A stretch of 39,689 nt of DNA, taken from the NCBI GenBank assembly GCA_964462045.1, contig CAYWWB010000004.1, forward strand, positions 1 to 39,689. Reading direction: 5' to 3'. Below, in pieces: positions 1 to 20,411 of the stretch; positions within the stretch are counted from its first letter, which is position 1; each line of letters begins with the position of its first letter. The DNA comes from Candidatus Woesearchaeota archaeon. GTDB lineage: Archaea > Nanobdellota > Nanobdellia > Pacearchaeales > GW2011-AR1. Under the pieces are notes generated by a model that ran no database searches, was not told the DNA's origin, and was given only the letters and a program-made list of their open reading frames with translations. The position numbers were made by a program, and so were the translations under genes.

Positions 1-837
1 GAAATGAAAGATGTTGAAACTTTTACAAATGAATCTACAACTGGTTTAGATAATGCATGGGATTTTGTTGATAACCCTTATGATGATACTAATAATAAAG
101 ATATTTGGGATATTGAATCAGAAATTAACAATGGATATCCTCATCTTACTGAAATAGAAAGTTCAGGTGAGGTAAATAGTGACACATTGGTTACTGTTTC
201 ATCTGGAAGTCCTTTTTATACAAACAAATCTTCCAATCCATTTACATTAAGTAATATGGTTTCAGGAGAAGAGAGGCAAATTACTTTTGATATTAATGCA
301 ACAGGTTCAATAGGAGATATTTATGAAATGTTTGGAGAAGCGGTTCTTCTTGAAGATGATTCAATAAGTGATTCTACTTCAAGAAAAGATGTTTCTATAG
401 TAGAGACAAGCTTTGCAGTAGAAATGTCTCCTTTACTGAGTCAAAAAATTAATTGGACTATTAATTCAATTCCATTAAACAATGAATCTGCTCATGGAAA
501 TAATGGGACTGGAGAAACACAATATTATATTAATGTGACTGCAGATTATACCACTGTAGACGTATATATGAAAGCTAATAGAGATTTAGAAAGTCCTGGA
601 TTAGATAAATTAGGATTAGGGAATGAAACTTATTGGTATAATTATACAAATTCAAGTGTTCCTTTTAATGGAGAAAAACAATTGACAACAAATTATCAAG
701 ATAATAAAATTCTTGAAGATGTTGGAGACACAATAGTTTATCTTAAATATTATTTAGATGTTCCATCTACACAACCTGCTGGTGAATATAATAACACTGT
801 TTCATTCAAAGTTGTAAAACATGGTGAAACCCCTTAA
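1..837 (+). CDS. 5'-truncated secreted/surface beta-rich protein, paralog of 957..1523; function unknown
   Basis: The frame is open to the window edge (gaa precedes the ATG at 4) and the visible part has no signal peptide. Many N-x-S/T sequons. C-terminal block VYLKYYLDVPSTQPAGEYNNTVSFKV aligns with VYYRFWLDTPNDQPTGTYQNEVWFKG of the next gene. Confidence 0.7.
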   Translation, partial: EMKDVETFTNESTTGLDNAWDFVDNPYDDTNNKDIWDIESEINNGYPHLTEIESSGEVNSDTLVTVSSGSPFYTNKSSNPFTLSNMVSGEERQITFDINATGSIGDIYEMFGEAVLLEDDSISDSTSRKDVSIVETSFAVEMSPLLSQKINWTINSIPLNNESAHGNNGTGETQYYINVTADYTTVDVYMKANRDLESPGLDKLGLGNETYWYNYTNSSVPFNGEKQLTTNYQDNKILEDVGDTIVYLKYYLDVPSTQPAGEYNNTVSFKVVKHGETP

Positions 838-956: not shown

Positions 957-1523
957 ATGGTTAACAAAAAAAGAGCAACATTAAACATCTTAAGTGCAAT
1001 CTTGGTATTGTCTTTAGGAATGATTCTTATTCAAAATATTGGTAATGTTGATGCATATGAATCTGTTGCAAATACAACATCTCATGCAGATATTGATCAA
1101 TATTTTGCTCTTGAAATGTCTGCAAATTTAACAGATGGGATAAGATTTGGAAACATAGATGATTTAAATATTGATAATCATAATGCTTCAGGAAATTATA
1201 ATACATCAGATTTAACACAATTTTATATTTTAGTTTCAGAAGATTCAAATACAAATGTTAGTTTTCAAATAAATGCTAGTGATTTTACAAGTGGAACAGA
1301 CACATTAGGAGTTACAAATGAATCTTTTAGTAATAGTACTACCAATACTCTTAATAATCCTTCAATAGGTAATGAAACTTCACTTACAGAGGCCCTTCAA
1401 GGTGCAGGGAATGAGATTGATGTTGGAGAAAAAGTTTATTATAGATTTTGGTTAGATACTCCAAATGACCAACCAACAGGTACATATCAAAACGAAGTTT
1501 GGTTTAAAGGGTCTAGTGTTTAA
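957..1523 (+). CDS. Secreted beta-rich protein, paralog of the preceding ORF; function unknown
   Basis: ATG at 957. N-terminal signal/anchor KKRATLNILSAILVLSLGMILIQNIGNVDA. N/S/T-rich with many sequons. Shares a C-terminal strand motif with ORF 1..837. BRE/TATA at 920..934. Confidence 0.75.
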   Translation: MVNKKRATLNILSAILVLSLGMILIQNIGNVDAYESVANTTSHADIDQYFALEMSANLTDGIRFGNIDDLNIDNHNASGNYNTSDLTQFYILVSEDSNTNVSFQINASDFTSGTDTLGVTNESFSNSTTNTLNNPSIGNETSLTEALQGAGNEIDVGEKVYYRFWLDTPNDQPTGTYQNEVWFKGSSV

Positions 1524-1549
1524 AATATAAAAAAATAGAGGTGTGATTT

Positions 1550-2188
1550 ATGAAAAATAAAAATTTAAAATTTATTGTTTTATTTGCAAGTTTAATTATT
1601 TTTTCTAGTTTAGTTACTGCTGGAATTGGAATAAAAGTATCACAAGAATCTATTTTAGTTCCTGAGGGAGAAGAAGGATGTGTTACATATTATGTTTATA
1701 ATCCTTTTGATAAAGATTCTAAAGCTTCTATAAGTGTTACAAGTGAATTAAGAGATATCTTACAATATCAGGATAAAGAAACACAAATAATTCCTGCTGA
1801 AACATCTAGTGGTGAAGCTATCCCTGTTGAATTTTGTTTTCAGATTCCAAAACAAGTTTATGAAAAAGATTGTTTAGTTGGAGATATGTTATGTAAACAA
1901 GAGTGTAATATGGAAAGAAAAATATTTGAGGGTGAAGTTGTATTAAATGAAATACAGGAAGAGGGTGAAAATAATGAAGGTTCTGCAACAGCATTAACAT
2001 TAGGATATCCATTAAAAGTGGGTGTTAAATGTAAAGAACATCCAAGAGATTTAACTCCAGTGTATATTATTATTGCTGCAGTAGCTTTAATATTAATATT
2101 AATAACAACAAAAAAAGATAAAAAGAAAAAGAGTTCTTCTAGTAAATCTAGTAAAAAAAAGAAAAAATCTTCTAAAAAGAAAAAGTAA
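1550..2188 (+). CDS. Membrane-anchored surface protein with signal peptide, C-terminal TM helix and Lys/Ser-rich cytoplasmic tail
   Basis: Signal peptide LKFIVLFASLIIFSSLVTAG, C-terminal TM VYIIIAAVALILILITT, then KKDKKKKSSSSKSSKKKKKSSKKKK. A GAGGTG Shine-Dalgarno-like box lies just upstream. Confidence 0.7.
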   Translation: MKNKNLKFIVLFASLIIFSSLVTAGIGIKVSQESILVPEGEEGCVTYYVYNPFDKDSKASISVTSELRDILQYQDKETQIIPAETSSGEAIPVEFCFQIPKQVYEKDCLVGDMLCKQECNMERKIFEGEVVLNEIQEEGENNEGSATALTLGYPLKVGVKCKEHPRDLTPVYIIIAAVALILILITTKKDKKKKSSSSKSSKKKKKSSKKKK

Positions 2189-2215: not shown

Positions 2216-5200
2216 ATGAAAATGAAAAAAAGAGTGTTGAGTATTGTTTTTGTTTTTATTGTCATAATTTCTTTAATATTTTTTATTAAGGGATTTCAAA
2301 TTTCAAATACTTCATCACATTTTACTATTTCTTTAAGTGAAGAAAGATGGGAGAATATATCTGCTCCTGAAGGCGTTTTTGAACCTTCTAATCCTTCTTT
2401 ATTTGGAACACATATAAATCATTTTGAAATTGGTTTTGTTAATTTAAGTATTAGTTCAAATGAGGTTCTTGAATGTAAAATAAAAACATCTAATAAAAAT
2501 ATTCTTACTATAAATGAAACAGGTTTATCAAAATCAAATGAAAATTATACTTTAAGTTATTCAATAAAACAAACTGATTCAATAATAAAAGATTCTAATG
2601 TGGGATACATTCCCTGGGTTTTGGAAAATTGTTCTATTATTGATTCTTCTGAAAATATTGTTGATTTTCAAAATGTTTCAAGAAGGATTTATGTTCATGA
2701 TGATGAATATTGGGAAGACAATGAAGTTACAAGAGCAGTAACTTGTGAAGGGACTCCCCATGTTTATTTTAATAATACTGGAAAATGTGAGTTTTCTGAA
2801 GACACAATGTTTGCTTTACAGATGAGAAATGGTAATCCAGTAAATGAGACTTGCTTTAATAGTCCTGGTATTGCTTGTGCAGATTCTTATTGTAATGGTA
2901 TTTATTTCCCTACTTGTGATCCTGTAGATTATTTTTCAGGATTTAGTATTGAAGAAAAAGACCCAAATAATTATGCAGAAATAACTTCTAGTTTCGCAGG
3001 ATATAGTACTCCTATAGCTTTTACAAAATATACTAATTCAAGTGGAACCTTTAAATTAAGAGTTCTTGAATCTCTTTCAAGTAAATCTTTTTCAGTAACA
3101 TTATATAATTTAACAAATGTAGATGAATCAAATACAAATATTTACGGGCCTTCTTCTTCACAAGGAGATTTATCTATAACAAATCAAGGAGATGGAACCT
3201 ACACAGTTGCATTTTACAATTTCTCAGAATATTCAGGAACTTTAGATTTTACTTTTAATATTTCTTTTACTCAAGAAGGATTAAATGATAACAGGACAAT
3301 GAAAGTAGTTATAGCTTATGGAACAGACACTAATCAAGGAGATCCAGATTATTTTATTTCTTTATTAAACGAATCTGTAGGATTGTATAATAATGATGAA
3401 GGACAGATAACAGGAATAACAACTGATACAGGAGGTGTTTGTGGAGATGAAGCTAATAATGATTTTGATTATTTAGGAACTTTTAGTGGGAATGATGTAT
3501 GGGCTTGGAGTTATGATTGTTTTGATGAAGATTGTCATTTAATGCAAGGAGACGACTCTCAAACAAATGAATTTGGTTCTGGTAAAACAGGGTTGTGTAA
3601 TTATCAAACAGAATTAAATTGTTCAGATGAATTTGATAATGATTATGATTATGTTTATGATGGAAGTTCAAATCCTGGAGGAAATTTAGATTTTACAGAT
3701 TGCCATGATGCAGATTGTTTTCATAATGGGGATGGGTTAAATACTTGCCCGACAAAAGAGTTAATATGTAATGACTCTGTCAACAATGATTGGGATTATA
3801 CTCTTGGAGAATCAGATAATTCAGGAGATATGAAAATAGAAAATAATGGGACAAAATATGATTGGACACATCAATCTGATGTAACTGATTGTGAAGATAT
3901 TGATTGTGATGGTAAAATTGGGGGAAGTTCTGGAGAATTATGTAATTGGGGATATGAATTAAATTGTTCTGATAATTTTGATAATGATGCATTACAATTA
4001 AAAGATTGTGAATTAAATTCTGTAGGAAGCTCAACAGCGCAAGTTACTCCTGCTTATGCAGAATATGATTGTAGTTCTTTTTGTAGAAGTTCTGTAGAAA
4101 ATCATGAATCAGGAACACAATGTTTTGATAATATAGATAATGATTGGGATGCTATAACAATCAATGGATATTATAATGATAATTATGCAGATTATCATGA
4201 TGGAGGAATTGATTGTAGATGGGGGGGATATTTTGGAATAGGAAATAATTATAATCCAGAAGAAGAATGTAATTTATCTCTTAATTCCAACTTAAAAAGA
4301 TGTGAGCTTGGAAGAGAATTAACATGTAATGATAAATTTGATAATGATTTTGATAAAGATGCTAGTGGGATGCCCACACCAAAATGGAATTTAAACACAA
4401 GTCTCTATTTTGAGATTTTTGGTATTACTTATACATCTCATGGGGATTATGATGATTATGATTGTGCAAAAGAAAGTATTGTTCCTTCAAATGAAGCATT
4501 AAATGATTCGTGGTGTTTTGATGGTGTGGATAATGATTTAGATGCTTATTATTTTAGTGGGAATGGATACTCTCAAAACTCTTCAGGGGGATTTGATTGT
4601 GATGATACAGATTGTTTTGGAATAATAAACCCTGCAGATGAGGATGAAGCTTGCATTGATAGTGAGTATAATGCTTCTAATCCTTTATTTACGAATCTTC
4701 CTTTTCCTGGAAGATTCTGTGCAAATAATATAGATGATGACTCAGACGGACCTATTGATTGTGATGATTTGGATTGTTATAGGCAATTTACAATGTGTTC
4801 TCAAGGGCCTTGTTATAAAAAGGAAGATATAAGATGGGATTCTTGTGCAGATTCTATTGATAATGATAATACAAACGGGACTGATTGTGCAGATTCTGAT
4901 TGTTATGGATTATTTGGTTCAGAAGAAGGAGATTTTTGTGAACAAACAGAATCTAATTGTTTAGATGGATTTGATAATGATGCTGATGGAAATGCAGATT
5001 GTGCAGATTCTGATTGTTATGGGCTTGTAGGAGATTATAGGGATGGAGAAGTTTATTGTTCTTCAAATGAAAATACTTTAGATTTGTGTTATGATGGTTT
5101 TGATAATGATGCTGACGGAGTTTATGATTGCTATGAATCTGAATGTAATAGTTATTGTGAACTTTCAGATATTTCTGGAACAAACCCGATATCATTACCA

Positions 5201-7336
5201 GTTAATTTGGGAACAACAAGTCTTAATTCAGTTTCAGATGCATATATTAAAGATTATACAAAACAAGTAAGAAAAGGAGAATATTATAATTTAACTATGA
5301 AAATGGATTCTAGTTCTAGTGATGCTCAATGGACTTTGGGAACTGCAACAGGGGGAAGTTTCCAAAAATCATATTTTGATACTGGCACTGCTCAATTACA
5401 AGGACCTAATTCAGATAATTTTACTCTAACTGAAACTTCAGTTGGTTTTACAATAGAATCAAATGAAGCAGATTTGTCTTCAGGTTATGAAATGTCTTTT
5501 GTTATTCGAGCTAATTCTGTTATGTCTCAATCTACTTATGAATTAACTTATGCAGAATCAACTGGTTCAAAATTATCTTTAAATAATGATATTTATCATG
5601 AAATAAATGAAAATGTAAACCCTGAAGCCCAAAAAATAGAAATTATTCCCAATAATACCGGGATTAATTACGGAGATTCAGTATATTTGAGAGGAAATAT
5701 CTCTGATAATAACCAATTAGGAGTATGTCAGTGGGAGGTTTATGGACAAGCTTCTTTTAGTCCTTCGGATTCAACTAATTGTAAAGCTAGTTTTAGTCCA
5801 ACACAAGAAGGGACATATTATATTAATTTAACTCCAAAAGATTATTATTCTAATGAGGGAGATACAATCACAAAAGAATATGATTTGAATATAATCCCAA
5901 CTAAAAATGAAGCAGAATTGAATCAAACTTTCTACAATTCTACAATTGATACTTTAGAATTTAATTTTAGTTTTAATGTCCCTTCTGGAGATTCTTTAGG
6001 AAATTGTGAAATAATGATGAAAAATTCAACAAATGAATATTCAATGAAAAACATCTCTGCAACAGGAAATCTTTGTCAAGGAACAATTGATATTTCTTCA
6101 ATAAATGATGGAATGTACACTTTCTTTGCAAAAGTAAATGAAACAACTGAAGGAAATTTAATTTTAAGTAAAAGTGATTCTTCATTAATTTGTTCTCAAG
6201 TTGTAAATGGAACTTGTGTTTTTGCTGATTTTAATAATAATACTTATCCGGATATTTGTGTAAAAGACACTACCCCCCCTGAAATAACTTTAATTTCTCC
6301 AAATAATGAAACCTCCACAACCTCTCCTGCTAACTTTAAATACAGTGTTACGGATTCTACTGACATAGCAAATTGTAGTTTAATTATAGACGGATCAATT
6401 TCTGAAACAGACACATACATAACTAAAGAAACAGAACAACAATTTTCAGAAACATTCTCAACTGGAACTTATTCTTGGAAAATAAATTGTACAGATGAAG
6501 TTGGAAATATTGGTGAGTCAGAAACCAGAACAATAACTGTTAAAAAACCTACAACTGGACCTGGAGGCGGTGGAAGTGATACAGGTAGAGGCGGAATAAG
6601 TGGAGGCATAGCACCTTCTGAACCATCATATGAAAGTTTTTCAATAGATAAAGAAGAAATTAGAACAAGAGCATATACTAATGAAATAAAAACAGAAATG
6701 ATAGAAATAAAAAACACTAAAGAAGAGACAATTGAATTTAAAATAGAAAGTGATACTTCATTTGCACTTTTACCAAAAAATATTACTCTTGAACCTAATG
6801 AAACCAAAATTATTCCTGTAAAATTTTACTCTCCAAACAGAATAGGAAATTATTTTGGAAGTGTAACAGTAGAATCAGAGGATGGAAAGAAAGTAATTCC
6901 AATAAAACTTTCAGTAATGGCTCCCTCACTTTTAGAAATAGATACTCGTGTTTTAGATAAAAGTAAATTAGTTACTTTTGAAAAGGAAGTTTTTGCAAAC
7001 ATAACTATAAAAAATAAAGACGATTTAAAAAAGAATATCACTTTAACATATTTCATAAGAAGAAACGCACAAGAATTTAAAAACAAAACAGAGAATATTA
7101 TGTTAAATGCTGGTGAAGAAATAAGTATTGTGAGGGGACTTCCTAAAGAAAATACTTTCTTAATTAAAAAAGATTATTTTCAAACAGAAGTAAAATATTC
7201 CAAAACAACACTACATTCAGAAGATAATTTTATAATAATTAATTGGATAACTGCAATAATCACTCTAATTGTTTTAGGTGTTTTAATTTCTCTAATTATT
7301 ATAAAAATAAAAAAGAACGAAAAAAACGAGGAATAA
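2216..7336 (+). CDS. Giant (~1700 aa) Cys/Asp-rich surface protein: signal/anchor, 11 CxDxxDNDxD...DCxDxDC modules, Ig-like domain, Gly-rich linker, C-terminal TM anchor
   Basis: One uninterrupted 5.1 kb frame. The track start at 2201 is TTG; the first ATGs are at 2216 and 2222. N-terminal hydrophobic VLSIVFVFIVIISLIFFI; C-terminal TM WITAIITLIVLGVLISLIII followed by KIKKNEKNEE. Dozens of N-x-S/T sequons. Confidence 0.9.
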   Translation: MKMKKRVLSIVFVFIVIISLIFFIKGFQISNTSSHFTISLSEERWENISAPEGVFEPSNPSLFGTHINHFEIGFVNLSISSNEVLECKIKTSNKNILTINETGLSKSNENYTLSYSIKQTDSIIKDSNVGYIPWVLENCSIIDSSENIVDFQNVSRRIYVHDDEYWEDNEVTRAVTCEGTPHVYFNNTGKCEFSEDTMFALQMRNGNPVNETCFNSPGIACADSYCNGIYFPTCDPVDYFSGFSIEEKDPNNYAEITSSFAGYSTPIAFTKYTNSSGTFKLRVLESLSSKSFSVTLYNLTNVDESNTNIYGPSSSQGDLSITNQGDGTYTVAFYNFSEYSGTLDFTFNISFTQEGLNDNRTMKVVIAYGTDTNQGDPDYFISLLNESVGLYNNDEGQITGITTDTGGVCGDEANNDFDYLGTFSGNDVWAWSYDCFDEDCHLMQGDDSQTNEFGSGKTGLCNYQTELNCSDEFDNDYDYVYDGSSNPGGNLDFTDCHDADCFHNGDGLNTCPTKELICNDSVNNDWDYTLGESDNSGDMKIENNGTKYDWTHQSDVTDCEDIDCDGKIGGSSGELCNWGYELNCSDNFDNDALQLKDCELNSVGSSTAQVTPAYAEYDCSSFCRSSVENHESGTQCFDNIDNDWDAITINGYYNDNYADYHDGGIDCRWGGYFGIGNNYNPEEECNLSLNSNLKRCELGRELTCNDKFDNDFDKDASGMPTPKWNLNTSLYFEIFGITYTSHGDYDDYDCAKESIVPSNEALNDSWCFDGVDNDLDAYYFSGNGYSQNSSGGFDCDDTDCFGIINPADEDEACIDSEYNASNPLFTNLPFPGRFCANNIDDDSDGPIDCDDLDCYRQFTMCSQGPCYKKEDIRWDSCADSIDNDNTNGTDCADSDCYGLFGSEEGDFCEQTESNCLDGFDNDADGNADCADSDCYGLVGDYRDGEVYCSSNENTLDLCYDGFDNDADGVYDCYESECNSYCELSDISGTNPISLPVNLGTTSLNSVSDAYIKDYTKQVRKGEYYNLTMKMDSSSSDAQWTLGTATGGSFQKSYFDTGTAQLQGPNSDNFTLTETSVGFTIESNEADLSSGYEMSFVIRANSVMSQSTYELTYAESTGSKLSLNNDIYHEINENVNPEAQKIEIIPNNTGINYGDSVYLRGNISDNNQLGVCQWEVYGQASFSPSDSTNCKASFSPTQEGTYYINLTPKDYYSNEGDTITKEYDLNIIPTKNEAELNQTFYNSTIDTLEFNFSFNVPSGDSLGNCEIMMKNSTNEYSMKNISATGNLCQGTIDISSINDGMYTFFAKVNETTEGNLILSKSDSSLICSQVVNGTCVFADFNNNTYPDICVKDTTPPEITLISPNNETSTTSPANFKYSVTDSTDIANCSLIIDGSISETDTYITKETEQQFSETFSTGTYSWKINCTDEVGNIGESETRTITVKKPTTGPGGGGSDTGRGGISGGIAPSEPSYESFSIDKEEIRTRAYTNEIKTEMIEIKNTKEETIEFKIESDTSFALLPKNITLEPNETKIIPVKFYSPNRIGNYFGSVTVESEDGKKVIPIKLSVMAPSLLEIDTRVLDKSKLVTFEKEVFANITIKNKDDLKKNITLTYFIRRNAQEFKNKTENIMLNAGEEISIVRGLPKENTFLIKKDYFQTEVKYSKTTLHSEDNFIIINWITAIITLIVLGVLISLIIIKIKKNEKNEE
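3440..5158 (+). repeat. Intragenic array of about 11 Cys/Asp-rich metal-binding-like modules (thrombospondin type 3 / MopE-like DNDxDG motif)
   Basis: Module cores read from the translation: CGDEANNDFDY, CSDEFDNDYDY, CNDSVNNDWDY, CSDNFDNDALQ, CFDNIDNDWDA, CNDKFDNDFDK, CFDGVDNDLDA, CANNIDDDSDG, CADSIDNDNTNG, CLDGFDNDADG, CYDGFDNDADG. Most are followed by DCxDxDC. A 26-nt perfect DNA repeat gattgtgcagattctgattgttatgg occurs at 4883..4908 and 4997..5022. Confidence 0.8.
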
Positions 7337-7366: not shown

Positions 7367-8395
7367 ATGGTGGAGGTTTATTATTCTAAAAATATTGAAG
7401 GAATTTTGGAAAATATAGACTTTTCTAATTTGGGGGAGAATGTTGCAATAAAAACTCATTTTGGTGAGAAGGGATGTGATACCTATATTAATCCTGAAAT
7501 TGTTAGGAGGGTTTATGAAAAAGTGCAATCCTTAGGAAAAAAAGCTACACTTATTGAATGTAATGTTTTATACAAGGGAGAAAGAACTAAAGCTTCAAGT
7601 CATAAAAAACTAGCTAAAAAACACGGGTTTGATTTTGCTGAAATTGATATCTTAGATGGAGAAGGGGGAGACGAGTATGTTGAAAAAGATGTTGAAAAAG
7701 GAGTTGTGAATAAAGCTAAAGTTGGTAGGGGGATTGGAAAATATGATTCTATGGTTGTATTGAGTCACTTCAAAGGGCATATCGCAGCTGGTTATGGAGG
7801 GGTTTTCAAAAATGTTGGGATGGGATTAGGTTCAAGAGCAGGAAAACTTCATATGCATTCGAATATAAGTCCTTCTATTAATAGAAACAATTGTATAGCT
7901 TGTGGAAAATGTATTGAAAATTGTGATTTTGATGCAATCCACTGGAAAAAAGACAAAAACGGAGAGAAAAAAGCTGAAATAGATAGTAATAAGTGTGTAG
8001 GGTGTGCCATGTGTATTGCTGTTTGTCCTCAAAAAGCTGTTAAAATTCCTTGGGAAGGGTGTTCAAATGACGAGCTTCAAAAAAGAATTGTAGATTATTT
8101 TGACTCTATTGTGAAAGATATTGGAAAGGATAATATGATTTATATAAATGTCTTAGAAAACATAACAAAAAATTGTGATTGTGATGGAGAAAAACAAGAA
8201 CCTATTATGGAAGATATAGGGATATTGGTTTCTTATGATCCTGTTGCAATAGATAAAGCAAGTTTAGATTTAGCAAATAAAAATTCAAACAATGAATTTG
8301 ATAATATAAATGATGTTAATAAAAATGTCCAGGTTGATTATGCTTTTGAAAAAGGGCTTGGAAACAAAAATTATGAGATAAAGAATATTAAATAG
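7367..8395 (+). CDS. DUF362-family protein with inserted 2x[4Fe-4S] ferredoxin domain
   Basis: Two ferredoxin cluster motifs, CIACGKCIENC and CVGCAMCIAVCP, sit in a DUF362-like scaffold (IKTHFGE..., NCDCDG). Confidence 0.75.
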   Translation: MVEVYYSKNIEGILENIDFSNLGENVAIKTHFGEKGCDTYINPEIVRRVYEKVQSLGKKATLIECNVLYKGERTKASSHKKLAKKHGFDFAEIDILDGEGGDEYVEKDVEKGVVNKAKVGRGIGKYDSMVVLSHFKGHIAAGYGGVFKNVGMGLGSRAGKLHMHSNISPSINRNNCIACGKCIENCDFDAIHWKKDKNGEKKAEIDSNKCVGCAMCIAVCPQKAVKIPWEGCSNDELQKRIVDYFDSIVKDIGKDNMIYINVLENITKNCDCDGEKQEPIMEDIGILVSYDPVAIDKASLDLANKNSNNEFDNINDVNKNVQVDYAFEKGLGNKNYEIKNIK

Positions 8396-8858: not shown

Positions 8859-11390
8859 TTATTGTTTTTCTATTTTTAAAATTTTCATAATCCCTTTTGT
8901 AGCAAAAATACTTACTATAAAAGTTATGATAGTCCCTCCAATTAAAATTAGCCAAGGAACTATTCCTAAAGGTGTTAATTCAAATAAGTTATTCATGGGG
9001 GTATATATTATAACTAATTGTAAAATCAAAGAAACTCCCAATGCAATCAAAAGTAGTTTGTTTGAAAACCATCCTTGTTTTTCCCTGTATCTAATACTCC
9101 CTATTCTTACAAATTCAAAAAGTATTAAACCTGTAAATAAGGTAGTTCTTGCAATGTTTTCTCCAAATAAACTATTTGTTAAAAAGAAAGTTCCCAATAA
9201 AGTCAAAACAATTATTGAACCAATAATCAAAGTAAGATAAGTGAGTTCTTTGTTTATTATTCCTTCTGATTTATTTCGGGGTTTTCTTTTCATAATGTTT
9301 TTAGAAGGGGGATCAACACCTAAAGCTAAAGCAGGGAATCCGTCTGTTAATAGATTTACCCAAAGAAGTTGTACTGGGAGTAAAATAGGATATTCTAAAG
9401 TTAAAAATAATGTTGCAATCAAAATTAACATAACTTCTGCAAAATTACTTGTCAAAAGATAATTAACAAATTTTCTACAGTTATCAAAAATTCTCCTCCC
9501 CTCCTTTACACCTAAAACAATATTAACAAAATTATCATTTAATAAAACAATATCTGATGCTTGTTTTGCTACATCTGTCCCTTTTTTACTCATTGAAACC
9601 CCTACATCAGCCATTTTCAATGCAAGAGCATCATTTACACCATCTCCAGTCATAGAAACAATATTCCCTTGATTTTTCAATATCTTCATTATTCTTAATT
9701 TATGTTCTGGAGAAAGCCTTGCAAAAACATTTACCTCATTATTTAGTTTTTTAAAGAGTTTTTCATCATCCATATTTTCCAAATCATTCCCTACCAAAAC
9801 CTCTCTTGTTTTAAGGCCTATTTCAGAAGCGATTGCTTTTGCTGTTTTTGGATTGTCACCTGTTAACATTAAAACTCTTATTCCTGCTGTCTTACATTCT
9901 TCTAATGCTCCTTTAACCCCTTTCCTTACAGGATCACTTATTCCAGTCAAACCAATCCAAATAAGCTCTTTTTCAATATCTTTCTCATTAATAGAATCTT
10001 CTATATTTTTATATGCAAATCCCAATACTCTCAAAGCTCTTGAAGAAAATTCATCATTTTTATCTAATATTCTCTCCTCATCTTTTTTTGTTAATTTTCT
10101 TATTTTTCCATTCTCAATAATCTTGTTACATTTTTTAATTAAAACTTCTGGTGCTCCTTTGGAATAAACCGCAGATTCTTTGTTGTTTTTAATTACAACA
10201 GACATCATTTTCCTCTCTGAAGAAAAAGGTATTTCATTTGTTCTTTTGTATTTTTTTTCTAAATCTTCCTTATTAAAATCAAAATCTTTTCCAAAATTAT
10301 ATAATGCTACTTCTGTTTCATCTCCAATAAGTCTTTTTTTTCCTTTTAATTTATGAACATCATTATTTAAAACAGAACAATAAAGTAAATTTCTAATTTG
10401 ACCTTTGTCTAATTCTCCAACCCCATATTCTTTATCTAAATAAACATCTGTAACCGCCATCTCTCCCCTAGTCATTGTTCCGGTTTTATCTGAACAGATA
10501 ACATTTACTGAACCTAAAGATTCTGTTATTCCTAACTTCCTTACCAAAACTTTCTTCTTCATCATTGCTTTTGCACCTAAAGCCAAACTCAAAGTTATAA
10601 CAGCGGGAAGCCCTTCTGGAACTGCTGCAACAGCCAATGCAACTGCAGTTAAAATAGATTGATATAATGAAAATTTGAATAAACCCACAATTAAAACTAA
10701 AACAGCTATTCCTAAAACTATCCAAGATAATTTTTTACTTAAAACAGACATTTCCCTATAGAAAATGGTTTTTTCCTCTTCCATTGAACCTAATTTCTCT
10801 GCAATAGAACCTATTTTTGTTTTCATCCCTGTAGAAATAACTTTTGCAACAACATTTCCAATTGTTAAATAAGTGTTCTTATAAATTTCCTCTCCTGGTT
10901 TTTTTAAAACTGCACTTGATTCTCCAGTTAAAGCGGATTCATCAAATTTTGCCTGAGAACTTTCTAAAATTTTTGCATCTGCAGGAATCACATCCCCTCC
11001 AGAAAGGACTATTATATCGCCAGGGACTATTTTTGAAGAATTTATTATTTTTTCTTCTCCATCCCTAATAACTCTTGCCTTGGGTTGGGACATCTTTTGA
11101 AGAGCTTCTATACTTTTTTCAGCTTTATAATCCTGAAAGAAACCACTTAATGCTGAAGCAATAACAATTACCAAAATAAGAATTATGTCTATTAGATTAT
11201 TCTCTGGAGAATATTTTGTAATTAGGGTTAATATAATAGCTGCCACTAATAAAATGAGAATTAAGGGGGATTTAAATTGAGATAAAAGAATTTTCCAAGG
11301 AGAAACTTTCTTCTTTCTCTCAAGAACATTCTCACCATATTTTTCAAGTCTTTTTTTTGCCTCTTTTTTTGAAAGCCCTTTTTTATTCAT
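8859..11390 (-). CDS. Cation-transporting P-type ATPase, P2A (SERCA/Ca2+-ATPase-like)
   Basis: Motifs TGES (LTGESSAV), PEGLP, phosphorylation site CSDKTGTMT, KGAPE, TGDN, GDGVNDALALK. About 10 hydrophobic segments. Confidence 0.92.
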   Translation of the reverse strand: MNKKGLSKKEAKKRLEKYGENVLERKKKVSPWKILLSQFKSPLILILLVAAIILTLITKYSPENNLIDIILILVIVIASALSGFFQDYKAEKSIEALQKMSQPKARVIRDGEEKIINSSKIVPGDIIVLSGGDVIPADAKILESSQAKFDESALTGESSAVLKKPGEEIYKNTYLTIGNVVAKVISTGMKTKIGSIAEKLGSMEEEKTIFYREMSVLSKKLSWIVLGIAVLVLIVGLFKFSLYQSILTAVALAVAAVPEGLPAVITLSLALGAKAMMKKKVLVRKLGITESLGSVNVICSDKTGTMTRGEMAVTDVYLDKEYGVGELDKGQIRNLLYCSVLNNDVHKLKGKKRLIGDETEVALYNFGKDFDFNKEDLEKKYKRTNEIPFSSERKMMSVVIKNNKESAVYSKGAPEVLIKKCNKIIENGKIRKLTKKDEERILDKNDEFSSRALRVLGFAYKNIEDSINEKDIEKELIWIGLTGISDPVRKGVKGALEECKTAGIRVLMLTGDNPKTAKAIASEIGLKTREVLVGNDLENMDDEKLFKKLNNEVNVFARLSPEHKLRIMKILKNQGNIVSMTGDGVNDALALKMADVGVSMSKKGTDVAKQASDIVLLNDNFVNIVLGVKEGRRIFDNCRKFVNYLLTSNFAEVMLILIATLFLTLEYPILLPVQLLWVNLLTDGFPALALGVDPPSKNIMKRKPRNKSEGIINKELTYLTLIIGSIIVLTLLGTFFLTNSLFGENIARTTLFTGLILFEFVRIGSIRYREKQGWFSNKLLLIALGVSLILQLVIIYTPMNNLFELTPLGIVPWLILIGGTIITFIVSIFATKGIMKILKIEKQ

Positions 11391-17809: not shown

Positions 17810-18961
17810 CTAATAAGGAGCTTCAGCTCCGAAAAGTTCCCAAAGCCAGTTTATGAATCTTTGAAACCAATTAAGTTCCCTATCATCTTCTGATACATCT
17901 ACTTCTGTTGTCTTTGGTTCGTATTGTTTTTTGTAAATTTTATGTTCATAACTTTCTTCTTCATCATCTTCATCATCTTCTGAAAGACTTGGATTGATTT
18001 TGAAATCTACACTTTTATTATTTTCATTACCATTTGAATCAGTTGCATAAATTGTTAATGTGTAATTTCCTTTATCTAATACTATTGAATCATCATATGA
18101 ACTAACAAATCCAGCAGTCAAAGATCTTCTTGAAATTCTTTGAGTACCATTTAATTCATATTCTAATTCTGCTGATTCATCTGTAGATATAGTTATGTTT
18201 ATTTGATTAACTTCATATTCTTCTCCATCTATTGGTGAATCAATTGTAATTTCTGGAGCAGTTGTATCAACATCTGGTAATGTATTTACTGTAAATGTAA
18301 CACTATCACTTCCTTCATTTCCATTAACATCAGTTGCATAAACTGTTAAAGAGTTTGAACCTTCTTGAGTAGTTATTGTAAAAGGACTATTACACCCTGA
18401 AATTGTTTGTCTGCTTCCACCATTAAGAACATATTCACAAGTATCTATTCCTTCATTATCAGTAGCATCAAACCCAACTGTAACATCAGTTGAATCTAAT
18501 GTTTCTCCATTACTTGGAGAATTTATTGTTACTTGAGGAGCTTCATTATCTTCTCCTTTTACTGTTAAAGATAATTCGTTTGATATAGATGTTGAACCAT
18601 CTTTTAATTCTACATATAAAGTTAGTGTATGTTCTCCTACAGAAGTTGTTTTTCCTATAGTAACATCATTTTGATAATATAAAGAACCCCCTGCAGCAGA
18701 ATTTTGTTCAAACCCTGAATTCCATGTTCTAACTGGAGTTCCGTCTATCCTTAATGAAACTTCTTTTATTTCAGAAACATCATATGTAAGAACTTCAAAA
18801 TCTACTTGAGTGTTTTTTCCTTCAGTTATAGTTCCTGAAAATCCTGAATCATATTGTAAGTTAGTGTCTATATTAGCAGCTTGAATAAATCCTAAAGAGA
18901 TAACTAAAGCTAAGAAAATCATTAATACTCTTCCAGCCTTATTAAAATTATTTTGTGTCAT
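17810..18961 (-). CDS. Secreted protein with tandem Ig-like domains, acidic linker and amphipathic Trp-rich C-terminus
   Basis: Signal peptide RVLMIFLALVISLGFIQA. Repeats APQVTINSPSNGETL...TVYATDVNGNEGSDSVTFTVN and APEITIDSPIDGEEY...TIYATDSNGNENNKSVDFKIN resemble PPEITLISPNNE...CTDEVGNIGESETRTITV of the giant protein. C-terminus NWFQRFINWLWELFG. Confidence 0.8.
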   Translation of the reverse strand: MTQNNFNKAGRVLMIFLALVISLGFIQAANIDTNLQYDSGFSGTITEGKNTQVDFEVLTYDVSEIKEVSLRIDGTPVRTWNSGFEQNSAAGGSLYYQNDVTIGKTTSVGEHTLTLYVELKDGSTSISNELSLTVKGEDNEAPQVTINSPSNGETLDSTDVTVGFDATDNEGIDTCEYVLNGGSRQTISGCNSPFTITTQEGSNSLTVYATDVNGNEGSDSVTFTVNTLPDVDTTAPEITIDSPIDGEEYEVNQINITISTDESAELEYELNGTQRISRRSLTAGFVSSYDDSIVLDKGNYTLTIYATDSNGNENNKSVDFKINPSLSEDDEDDEEESYEHKIYKKQYEPKTTEVDVSEDDRELNWFQRFINWLWELFGAEAPY

Positions 18962-18962
18962 T

Positions 18963-20411
18963 TTATCTGTTTAAATACCAATTTATTCCTAAACCATATT
19001 TAAAATCTCCAGATTTGCTTTTTTCTCCAAGCCCGGTTTCATATTTTACATTTCCTTCTACTGAAAAACTACTATTATCTTTTCCAGGAAAATACTCTAT
19101 TCCTGCAGAACCTGTAAAAGTAACTTCTTTTCCTAAATTTTTAATATAATTATCTCCTTCTCCATTACCTATCTCAAGTCTTGTTGAATCAACCACATTT
19201 CCATTTGCGTCTTCTGATATTATGTCTGTTGATATCTCCCCTTCATATTGTTGTTTAACATTTCTATAAGTCAATCCAACTTTTCCCTCCAATCCAAAAC
19301 TGTTTGAAATCATTCCGTTAAAACTAATTCCTGCTCCCCATTCATAATTTTGATACATAGGAGTTTTAGTAACATCTTTATTAGTTATAGCATATCTAGT
19401 TGTATCTCCTTCTTTATATAGAGGTTCTTTTTCTTGTTGAAGACTTTCATTTGTAGGTTTTCCTAAATTCCATGTATTATTTTGGTTCCCTATATTATAT
19501 GATATAAAAGGCCCTATTGAAAGATTTTCACTTCCAAATCCCAATGTAAAAGAAGCTTGTCCATAAAGATTGTCTCCAGCTACTACCCCATCAACATCTA
19601 ATTTTGGTTGGAACCAGCTTAAATCAAAATTCCTATTTCCACTTCTCTTCTTACTTTTATCATCATAAGGAGAATAAAAATTATCTTCTTCTACTTCAAC
19701 AATTCCTTGAACTTCACCAGTTGTAGGTTCTATTAAGTCATATTTTTTGGGATAATCTGAGTTTAAAATTCCTTCAAGATTTCCTCTTGATTTTTCTTTA
19801 TCAACTTTCCATCCCCAAATTTCATCAGTTTGAACATAATAGTTTTCTCTGTTGTCTGTTACACCAATTTCTTGAACATCATCTTTGTATGCCCAAACAA
19901 CATTTTGTTTTTCTCCATTTCCTGAAGGTTGGTGAAAATAATAAACTGTATCATTTATTCCGTCACTTCCTTTTATAACGAGTGTCTTAAATAAATTTGA
20001 GAAATCTTTTGTTTTAATTTCTAATTTATCTCCTTGAAAATCTAAGTTTTTTGTATCATATTGAGGAGTAGCATCTTCTGGTTTTTTTGCAAATTGACCA
20101 GAATTATTTAATATAATTCTATTTCCTTCAATTTCATAAGGAGAAAATACAACACTAGGTTTATTACCATTCATTTTACTAACAGGATATTTTTCAATTC
20201 CCAAAGGATTATCTCTTGATTCTTTAATTTCTTTAAAAGCGTAAACAGTTCCATGTTCCATGATAGCTTCTTGAGTTTCACTACTTCCCACAGAACCAGA
20301 TTGAGTAAAATCAACATCTTGAGCTTTAACATTAGGTGATAAAGCTGTAAGAGCTGCTAATCCTAAACCTCCTAAAAGGCTTTTGAATTTGTTTGTTTTT
20401 TTGTTTGTCAT
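18963..20411 (-). CDS. Secreted 482-aa protein whose C-terminal half looks like a transmembrane beta-barrel (OMP-like)
   Basis: Signal peptide FKSLLGGLGLAALTALSPNVKA/QD. C-terminal half has alternating Gly/aromatic-rich strands: YGQASFTLGFGSENLSIGPFISYNIG, YEWGAGISFNGMISNSFGLEGKVGLTYRN, VTFTGSAGIEYFPGKDNSSFSVEGNVKYETG, and terminal FKYGLGINWYLNR. Confidence 0.75.
   Translation of the reverse strand: MTNKKTNKFKSLLGGLGLAALTALSPNVKAQDVDFTQSGSVGSSETQEAIMEHGTVYAFKEIKESRDNPLGIEKYPVSKMNGNKPSVVFSPYEIEGNRIILNNSGQFAKKPEDATPQYDTKNLDFQGDKLEIKTKDFSNLFKTLVIKGSDGINDTVYYFHQPSGNGEKQNVVWAYKDDVQEIGVTDNRENYYVQTDEIWGWKVDKEKSRGNLEGILNSDYPKKYDLIEPTTGEVQGIVEVEEDNFYSPYDDKSKKRSGNRNFDLSWFQPKLDVDGVVAGDNLYGQASFTLGFGSENLSIGPFISYNIGNQNNTWNLGKPTNESLQQEKEPLYKEGDTTRYAITNKDVTKTPMYQNYEWGAGISFNGMISNSFGLEGKVGLTYRNVKQQYEGEISTDIISEDANGNVVDSTRLEIGNGEGDNYIKNLGKEVTFTGSAGIEYFPGKDNSSFSVEGNVKYETGLGEKSKSGDFKYGLGINWYLNR

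Follow-up and report, generated by a model that had tools for sequence, protein, structure and literature searches.

A giant predicted surface glycoprotein with 11 teneurin C-rich-type modules in a Woesearchaeota-like archaeon

Architecture of the giant gene

The window analyzed here is a stretch of 39,689 nucleotides (nt) from a Candidatus Woesearchaeota archaeon (contig CAYWWB010000004.1 of assembly GCA_964462045.1, positions 1 to 39,689 of the forward strand), and the subject of this report is a single giant gene in it whose product carries 11 Cys/Asp-rich modules. The open reading frame (ORF) lies on the plus strand and is uninterrupted from 2201 (TTG) or 2216 (ATG) to 7336, giving 1,706 amino acids (aa) counted from the ATG and a 5.1-kb open frame in a genome of 29% GC. 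By the curated criterion of NCBIfam, the protein is a member of the NF033662 class ("acidic double-disulfide repeat"), and its modules are, as judged by sequence, homologous to the C-rich domain of the teneurins. The amino acid composition is unusual (S, 10.2%; N, 9.5%; D, 9.1%; 60 Cys). The following features were mapped along the gene.

2216..7336 (alternative TTG start at 2201), plus strand: whole gene, intact ORF, predicted 1,706-aa type I membrane glycoprotein
2216..2296, plus strand: signal peptide or N-terminal hydrophobic segment (MKMKKRVLSIVFVFIVIISLIFFIKGF), from hydropathy
2297..3430, plus strand: conserved N-terminal head, modeled as two beta-sandwich domains flanking a helical, Cys-rich insert, with 15 sequons
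2852..2917 (aa 213-234), plus strand: degenerate 12th module that has lost its acidic cluster (C213..C221-ADSY-C226..C234), from a direct-repeat copy at 2870-2907
3440..5158, plus strand: 11 acidic double-disulfide (teneurin C-rich-type) modules, from NF033662, motif mapping, and a module profile searched against the PDB
5159..6265 (aa ~982-1350), plus strand: post-module beta-rich region with 7 conserved Cys and an immunoglobulin (Ig)/PKD-like domain at aa ~1080-1210; conservation of 42 to 59%
6278..6538 (aa 1355-1441), plus strand: Ig-like domain, from subthreshold Big_7/Big_13 matches
6557..7336, plus strand: C-terminal anchor module consisting of a Gly-rich linker, an ASH/Cep192-type Ig-like domain (aa 1492-1563), a second beta domain, a transmembrane helix, and a basic tail, from Pfam and hydropathy

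The N-terminal hydrophobic segment covers aa 7-27 and follows a KMKKR n-region (hydropathy of >2.5 across aa 5-27). Homologs such as P0005 have classical cleavable signal peptides, and the segment of the window protein may be cleaved likewise. At the other end, a transmembrane helix predicted from hydropathy (aa ~1672-1697) is followed by the charged tail KKNEKNEE. The combination of an N-terminal hydrophobic segment with a C-terminal transmembrane helix and basic tail points to a type I topology with the tail in the cytoplasm. N-x-S/T sequons are more frequent than expected, with 46 observed compared to 29.1 ± 4.7 in shuffled sequences (z = 3.6), and approximately 17 of them are retained in at least 17 of 22 homologs (44 to 59% identity over 70 to 99% of the query). 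Overall, these features support a large, secreted, membrane-anchored, glycosylated protein that is predicted to be exposed at the cell surface. Neither Pfam nor NCBIfam yielded a match of the protein to surface layer (S-layer) families or to C-terminal sorting signals (PGF-CTERM and others), and the C terminus is a plain transmembrane helix with a basic tail. A phmmer search of the full protein against PDB sequences returned a spurious antibody as its sole match; the relationship to teneurins described below emerged only with a profile of the modules.

Much of this layout had been proposed in a preliminary description of the DNA made from the letters alone, and the analysis bore it out. One intact large gene with a hydrophobic N terminus, heavy sequon decoration, a C-terminal anchor, an Ig-like domain at about 6270..6545 (subthreshold scores), a linker after it (GPGGGGSDTGRGGISGG, aa 1448-1464, 6557-6607), and a further beta-rich region past the linker were all recovered, and the count and coordinates of the 11 modules were exact.

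Identity of the repeated modules

The first cysteines of the 11 modules lie at aa 409, 469, 518, 584, 636, 704, 767, 835, 877, 915, and 958. Half-motifs of the module occur 19 times in the frame of the gene, and a search of all six frames of the window found them nowhere else. All four cysteines (C1 to C4) are present in an acidic context in modules 1-3 and 7-11. The canonical 13-residue spacing between C1 and C2 is found in modules 8-11 (4718-5158) and likewise in module 4. The cysteines as a whole are strongly conserved: the 22 homologs show virtually no variation at the 58 that lie between aa 87 and 1348. At the site of the degenerate 12th module within the head, the distant homologs P0023 and P0025 possess a complete acidic module.

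The way in which cysteines disappear from more distant homologs (27 to 31% identity) is informative about their pairing. They are dropped either as whole-module quartets or as C2-plus-C4 pairs (849+866, 891+908, and 221+234), and the last of these is exemplified by P0026, in which C221 and C234 of the 12th module are lost together. The paired loss of C2 and C4 fits bonds between C1 and C3 and between C2 and C4, which would match the 1-3 and 2-5 disulfides of teneurin. Each complete module is thus predicted to contain these two disulfides.

The protein matched NF033662 with 59.6 bits against a curated cutoff of 41 (E = 1.8e-16, 6 stretches), and this was the only NCBIfam match above its cutoff. 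Pfam gave a different picture. No match to TSP_3 (PF02412) was obtained with the whole protein at E ≤ 1 or with five subsegments at E ≤ 10, and the Cu-binding MopE family (PF11617), Ldl_recept_a, and EF-hand-type families were likewise not matched, with subsegments searched to E ≤ 10.

A profile built from modules 8-11 of the family alignment and searched against 177,635 PDB sequences produced 13 matches at E ≤ 10, all of them teneurins (Ten-2, Ten-3, Ten-4, and fly Ten-m). The best was the isolated human teneurin-4 C-rich domain (7plp_A; E = 5.7e-6), to which the profile aligned with the stretch sCaDgfDNDadggtDCaDsdC; no thrombospondin, low-density lipoprotein receptor (LDLR), or MopE chain was among the matches. 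The relationship also holds in reverse, as the C-rich segments of human Ten-4, Ten-3, and Ten-2 match NF033662 alone in NCBIfam (38.1, 31.4, and 34.8 bits, respectively); one module of the window protein scores 33.9 bits against the same model. A Foldseek search of the PDB with an AlphaFold2 (AF2) model of the array (aa 396-990, built from a 28-sequence alignment) retrieved teneurin-4 structures alone (7PLP and the full ectodomains 7BAM and 7BAN), with a best score that is not significant by itself. The preliminary description had compared the modules to thrombospondin type 3 and MopE-like repeats and had proposed the corresponding Pfam searches. The notion of a Ca2+-type module survives by way of the teneurin homology, whereas membership in the TSP_3 or MopE families does not, as neither their hidden Markov models nor their PDB chains were matched.

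In the crystal structure of the Ten-4 C-rich domain, three Ca2+ ions are bound via E835, D840, D843, N844, D845, D847, D851, D854, and D856; the coordination of sites I and II is like that in thrombospondin T3 repeats, that of site III is like that in LDLR-A modules, and the disulfides connect cysteines 1-3, 2-5, and 4-6 (Meijer et al. 2022, PMC9058538). The same authors stated that no other known fold is similar to the complete domain, and they also reported that calcium stabilizes the Ten-4 ectodomain in a structural role (PMC9058538). The residues D, E, or N occupy the nine corresponding ligand positions of the window modules as follows.

9 of 9 positions: modules 2, 3, 7, and 10
8 of 9 positions: modules 1, 8, and 11
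7 of 9 positions: modules 6 and 9
6 of 9 positions: modules 4 and 5

Most of the ligand columns are invariant in 22 of 22 homologs. The modules very probably bind Ca2+.

Flanking regions of the module array

The AF2 model of the N-terminal head (aa 28-405) reached a pLDDT of 79.3 and a pTM of 0.64. Its Foldseek matches included integrin alpha legs, MSCRAMM adhesins (SdrD, ClfB, Ace, and Cnm), pilins, Als adhesins, and arrestins, and no enzyme fold was among them. We read the similarity as that of a generic tandem Ig-like arrangement. Conservation within the family peaks in this head, with 65 to 67% identity at aa 151-250.

The post-module region gave a weak K319L-like PKD match, and the family profile matched Ig-like domains of a chitodextrinase (9x9r) and a "bacterial immunoglobulin domain B1" (9kvu). 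It co-occurs with modules 4-11 in distant relatives, including a homolog from bacteria of the candidate phyla radiation (CPR). The Ig-like domain that follows matched Big_7 with an E value of 8.4e-4 and 20.4 bits, below the cutoff of 24.1; the homologs P0005 and P0006 carry precomputed PF17957 (Big_7) annotations.

Matches in the C-terminal anchor module were also all below threshold and comprised Cep192_D4 (27.1 versus 35.5 bits), CFAP65 Ig (23.8 versus 27 bits), and HYDIN-type domains. This module varies between family members. Its approximately 260 C-terminal residues are homologous to the C termini of otherwise different 480- and 500-aa proteins (L082 and L083) encoded on Woesearchaeota-like contigs (profile E values of 1e-33 to 1e-36).

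Selection, family, and distribution

An ortholog of identical length (1,706 aa) and 87% identity is found in two further assemblies (L080 and L081), where the gene order is unchanged. Compared with this ortholog, the ratio of nonsynonymous to synonymous substitution rates (dN/dS) is 0.16 for the whole gene, 0.08 for the modules, 0.13 for both the N-terminal head and the post-module region, and 0.30 for the C-terminal part, which includes the anchor module. The gene is therefore under purifying selection and not a pseudogene, and none of its parts shows positive selection at the resolution of this one ortholog comparison.

A word-indexed search of 5.8 billion proteins recovered 28 relatives, among them the 22 homologs introduced above. 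All are annotated as "hypothetical protein" and originate from metagenome-assembled genomes labeled Woesearchaeota, "archaeon," or Nanoarchaeota. These labels fit a DPANN archaeon as the source of the gene. Their conserved core extends over aa ~50-1350 (42 to 69% column identity to the query), and the C-terminal 350 residues are variable. Scanning 1.84 billion representative proteins with aa 40-1239 in HMMER yielded 922 matches at E ≤ 1e-3, of which 90 reached E ≤ 1e-30. The whole core is present in approximately 20 clusters, some within proteins of 4 to 7 kaa (thousand aa); many others share modules 4-11 and the post-module domain, and many further matches share just a few canonical repeats. 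Some relatives carry additional domains in front of the core, such as three Laminin_G_3/ConA-like lectin domains, CBM96, and MG2 in the large protein P0032 and, judged by eye, an apparent beta-helix in P0002.

In a GTDB scan with one genome per species, 200 relatives were found, and lineages were read from the best 78 loci. These are mostly from DPANN archaea (Woese-, Pace-, Nano-, Aenigm-, Micr-, and Undinarchaeota, Nanohaloarchaea, and Altiarchaeales), and several genomes have two or three copies. Many of the closest genome matches (L002, L009, L015, and other third-party-annotation [TPA] loci) are titled "uncultured Methanosarcinales archaeon," and their proteins are 50 to 57% identical to Woesearchaeota ones. 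Other contigs of the same TPA sets are labeled DPANN, and the Methanosarcinales labels look unreliable. Two or three module arrays occur within approximately 30 kb of contig CAZDZV010000008.1 (L009, L040, and L051), and P0029 (6,834 aa) contains three stretches matching the core in one giant protein. Such multiple arrays per contig or protein suggest that some lineages can duplicate the core as a cassette, in contrast to its fixed state in the window gene.

About a dozen of the best 78 loci carry bacterial labels. The two CPR/Patescibacteria loci that were examined, L027 (5353-9756) and L055 (5356-10047), have clearly bacterial, syntenic flanks, with the gene order LepA (L027 only), RecJ, an ORF of unknown function (seen in L027), the homolog (1,467 or 1,563 aa), and PilM. 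The homolog thus adjoins the type IV pilus gene pilM in both loci. The L027 protein aligns to aa 557-1346 of the window protein with 26% identity (E = 3e-45). As these homologs are embedded in bacterial flanks, the core appears to be common to the DPANN and CPR ultrasmall radiations, which suggests sharing between domains.

Gene neighborhood

Immediately upstream of the giant gene lie two small genes.

957..2188, plus strand: two small genes with 26- to 27-nt spacing, probably cotranscribed
957-1523, plus strand: 188-aa secreted protein of no known family
1550-2188, plus strand: 212-aa protein of no known family, with a signal peptide, a 6-Cys ectodomain, a transmembrane helix, and a Lys/Ser tail

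Each belongs to a family of its own. Members of the ~190-aa family end in ...YYRFWLDxPxxQPxGxYxNxxxFKG, and those of the ~210-aa family have a signal peptide, six invariant Cys, a transmembrane helix, and a Lys-rich tail; for neither family were relatives found in Pfam, NCBIfam, or the PDB, including by profile searches of the last. The two-gene cassette directly precedes the giant gene of the window and its homologs in L080/L081 (L080, 2334-3563) and, three times, in L023 (104-4162). It also occurs without a giant gene in L082 (2-1840) and L083 (3506-6005), there upstream of the 480- to 500-aa proteins sharing the anchor module of the giant, and is absent from most giant loci. The link of the cassette to the giant gene is therefore tentative. 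Homology of the 212-aa protein to the C terminus of the giant was considered and found to be unsupported, with weak profile scores. The upstream ORFs of the P0005 locus (L001) show no similarity to those of the window.

Further upstream, an ORF at 1-837 (plus strand) runs off the 5' end of the window. Its syntenic ortholog in L080 is 736 aa long, contains GGLVG...NSYSTG repeats that look GLUG-like by eye, and ends in a C-terminal domain paralogous (35% identity) to the adjoining 188-aa secreted protein. Directly after the giant gene, 7367-8395 (plus strand) encodes a DUF362 protein with a 2x[4Fe-4S] ferredoxin domain. The gene is missing from the otherwise syntenic L080/L081, where a gene for a 140-aa Cys-rich protein comes next instead, so that this represents a strain-level indel. 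A P2-type cation ATPase (Cation_ATPase_N/C, E1-E2) is encoded at 8859-11390 (minus strand), 1.5 kb downstream of the giant gene, and this neighborhood is kept in close strains only; a functional link of the ATPase to the giant protein is speculative.

Two adjoining genes for secreted proteins lie farther downstream on the minus strand. The first (18963-20411) encodes a 482-aa protein with a signal peptide and no family assignment, the C-terminal half of which is rich in alternating G/aromatic strands, ends in ...YGLGINWYLNR, and looks beta-barrel-like, which is odd for an archaeon. The second (17810-18961) encodes a Big_7/Y_Y_Y Ig-like protein of 383 aa that has a very acidic stretch at its C terminus. 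A scan for sigma-70 promoters and terminators gave counts not above those in shuffled sequences, a scan that is not applicable to archaea. The tRNA and Rfam scans found two tRNAs only, both far from the giant gene.

Proposed function and alternative explanations

We favor the interpretation, at a probability of roughly 60%, that the protein is a Ca2+-stiffened, glycosylated, membrane-anchored surface stalk or adhesin of a Woesearchaeota-like DPANN archaeon. The protein would be exported by the Sec pathway and N-glycosylated, and its C-terminal helix and basic tail would hold it in the membrane. Two Ig-like domains and the Gly linker would form a membrane-proximal foot. Each complete module would contain the two disulfides (C1-C3 and C2-C4) and coordinate up to three Ca2+ through the side chains of CxDxxDNDxD...DCxDxDC, for a total load of roughly 24 to 30 Ca2+ per molecule. 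Calcium and disulfides together could produce a stiff, protease-resistant stalk, much as calcium stabilizes teneurin-4, and the two conserved beta-sandwich domains of the N terminus would be displayed by this stalk at a distance from the cell. The predicted role is one of contact or adhesion, with the target being a partner cell, a conserved glycan or protein on a surface, or the envelope of the cell itself. The context is adhesin-like in several respects, including the integrin-leg-, MSCRAMM-, and pilin-like head, the lectin and CBM extensions of relatives, and the pilM gene beside CPR homologs. Attachment to a host, which the preliminary description had put forward, is plausible. The intact gene under purifying selection, the architecture, the homology of the modules with their retained ligand residues, the cysteine framework, and the phyletic distribution are shown by the analysis; Ca2+ binding, disulfide pairing, rigidity of the stalk, surface exposure, and adhesion are predictions that build on them.

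Several observations weigh against this interpretation. Modules 4-6 are without the second (DCxDxDC) half-site, and modules 1-3 and 5-7 have 12 to 32 extra residues between the half-sites. The AF2 model of the array is of moderate confidence (pLDDT, 74.4; pTM, 0.51), and its best Foldseek match, 7PLP, is not significant by itself (E = 1.1; target TM-score, 0.58; 38 aligned columns). For the head, Foldseek E values were as low as 3e-6, yet TM-scores were only 0.2 to 0.3 and root mean square deviations were high. Furthermore, no region has a dN/dS of >1, and the head and the modules are the most conserved parts of the protein, which argues against a rapidly coevolving host-specific adhesin; their conservation fits a structural role in the envelope equally well. 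Finally, no sign of an episymbiotic lifestyle was found within the window.

An unlikely but possible alternative is that the protein is the main S-layer or envelope lattice protein, with its Ca2+ sites mediating lattice assembly as divalent cations do in many S-layers. Many archaeal S-layer glycoproteins are large, N-glycosylated, and Ig-rich and have a C-terminal transmembrane anchor, all of which applies here. Candidate S-layer proteins of DPANN archaea have been described in the same terms (bioRxiv 10.1101/2023.10.27.564410). The strong conservation of the core under purifying selection and its presence across DPANN would also be in line with such a role. However, no S-layer family was matched, and in the complete 648-kb genome with the ortholog P0005, a gene for a distinct S_layer_C (PF05124) protein lies 7 kb away. 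Several genomes have two or three paralogs, and the core is also embedded in proteins that range from 1.2 to 6.8 kaa and have extensions of the lectin or CBM type, a pattern that typifies accessory surface proteins more than a lattice protein. Homologs in CPR bacteria also speak against a lattice protein of this kind.

It is improbable that the modules serve in metal acquisition or buffering, either by binding a transition metal such as copper, as has been suggested for the MopE motif, or by acting as an extracellular Ca2+ store. The very dense acidic sites and the P2-type cation ATPase, which lies 1.5 kb downstream both in the window and in L080/L081, would be compatible with this idea. In contrast, PF11617 was not matched even at E ≤ 10, the module profile retrieved no MopE chain from the PDB, and the all-oxygen ligand set (Asp, Glu, and Asn) suits Ca2+ and not Cu. 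Moreover, the solved homolog, the teneurin-4 C-rich domain, holds Ca2+ in a structural role, and the linkage to the ATPase is limited to close strains.

The preliminary description had also suggested ongoing repeat expansion, according to which recent duplication or slippage would alter module number within populations as in a contingency gene. The data contradict this, and we consider it very improbable. The 26-nt perfect repeat on which the suggestion was based does exist (4883-4908 and 4997-5022, 114 nt apart), but the last modules are not near-identical in DNA: modules 9 and 10 share just 52% identity across the 114-nt period (70% within the 63-nt motif part), and Tandem Repeats Finder detected no 114-nt array. 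The 26-mer encodes the conserved peptide DCADSDCYG, and identical coding under the codon bias of the gene has a P value of ~0.05, so that the repeat is largely explained by the shared peptide and the strong codon bias. Each module is on average 49 to 65% identical to its positional orthologs in 21 other proteins and at most 47% identical to any sister module. Module number and cysteines are the same in all 22 homologs, and module number differs in deeply diverged relatives alone (P0023 to P0025 and P0027 are without module 2, and P0027 is also without module 1). Length is likewise unchanged (1,706 aa) in the population variant P0001, which differs by six substitutions, and in the L080/L081 orthologs. 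The two 26-nt tracts (...GATTGTTATGG) are identical to each other within the window and also within L080, where both have a synonymous TGT>TGC change. Gene conversion over a short tract between modules 9 and 10 may account for this shared change, as may coincidence.

The least credible explanation of all is that of a pseudogene, a chimeric assembly, or an ORF that is open by chance, given a 5.1-kb open frame at 29% GC, colinear orthologs in independent assemblies, and a dN/dS of 0.16.

A broader proposal is tentative, and we regard it as possible rather than probable. According to it, the ~1,300-residue core, with its two-sandwich head, 11 to 12 fixed teneurin-type Ca2+ modules, and post-module domain, would be an ancient cell-contact device of ultrasmall episymbionts in both DPANN and CPR, and the teneurin C-rich domain would descend from this prokaryotic repeat and not, as suggested in 2012, from an enzyme of a diatom or alga. 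A curated model of the repeat already exists (NF033662); a fixed 11-module core common to DPANN and CPR, together with the teneurin link, is worth following up. The favored interpretation of a Ca2+-dependent, disulfide-stapled stalk of teneurin-type modules offers a testable identity for a conserved, unannotated family of very large DPANN surface proteins. As the means of host contact in DPANN and CPR are an open question, a surface protein common to both radiations is a concrete candidate for studies of localization and binding. Seen in this light, the teneurin C-rich domain is one copy of a repeat that prokaryotes have in abundance, which is relevant to the assembly of the metazoan teneurin ectodomain. 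Should the conservative reading alone hold, the protein would be one more Ca2+-binding surface glycoprotein, useful for annotation and unsurprising.

Comparison with known systems

The closest comparison is with the teneurin C-rich domain (human Ten-4 residues 834-871; 7PLP). Both share the motif CxDxxDN(D/E)xDGxxDCxDxDC, the same nine ligand positions, and, in modules 4 and 8-11, the same 13-residue C1-C2 spacing; the first two disulfides of the domain (1-3 and 2-5) are probably common to the modules. A teneurin consensus, ExxCx(D/N)xxDx(D/E)xDxxxDCxxx(D/E)C, with eight acidic ligands and one Asn, also describes the window modules. In both proteins, the module would be extracellular and part of a membrane-anchored protein of the adhesion type. 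The differences are nevertheless considerable. The single copy in teneurin contains six cysteines, including a CC doublet after the acidic cluster, and forms a third disulfide (4-6), whereas the window protein has 11 tandem copies with four cysteines, no CC doublet, and many long inserts. Teneurins are type II proteins in which the C-rich domain lies between the EGF repeats and the TTR/FN-plug/NHL/YD-shell region, whereas the window protein is archaeal and of predicted type I topology and has only the C-rich module in common with them; no Pfam domain of the EGF, TTR, FN-plug, NHL, or YD-shell type was found in it.

The consensus of the teneurin Cys-rich domain was derived in 2012 by Tucker et al. 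(PMC3278476), who pointed out that it resembles the MopE motif as well as a diatom glucosidase and suggested that the domain came from algae. In the literature searched, no paper was found that connects the teneurin C-rich domain with repeat proteins of archaea or CPR bacteria, and none that describes the conserved core family of DPANN. The NF033662 model covers only the ~32-residue repeat, and the ~1,300-residue core has neither a family nor a name.

Thrombospondin type 3 repeats and LDLR class A modules are also acidic, disulfide-stapled Ca2+ minimodules that occur in arrays, but their cysteine framework differs from that of the window modules. The likeness to MopE (PF11617) is at the level of the motif (CxxxDDDCDG-type acidic Cys motif), and MopE binds copper through a different site. 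True PF11617 repeats are present in one family member, P0016, in a separate C-terminal extension.

A further comparison can be made with Ca2+-rigidified bacterial adhesins, such as RTX adhesins and the staphylococcal Sdr proteins. RTX adhesins have Ca2+-bound Ig-like extender domains. The extender of the window protein is built of ~40-residue Cys/Asp modules and not of Ig-like domains, without sequence relationship to these adhesins, in an archaeal protein with a predicted Sec signal peptide and transmembrane anchor. By analogy, however, the design logic may well be the same: a membrane or wall anchor, a long Ca2+-dependent extender, and distal binding domains.

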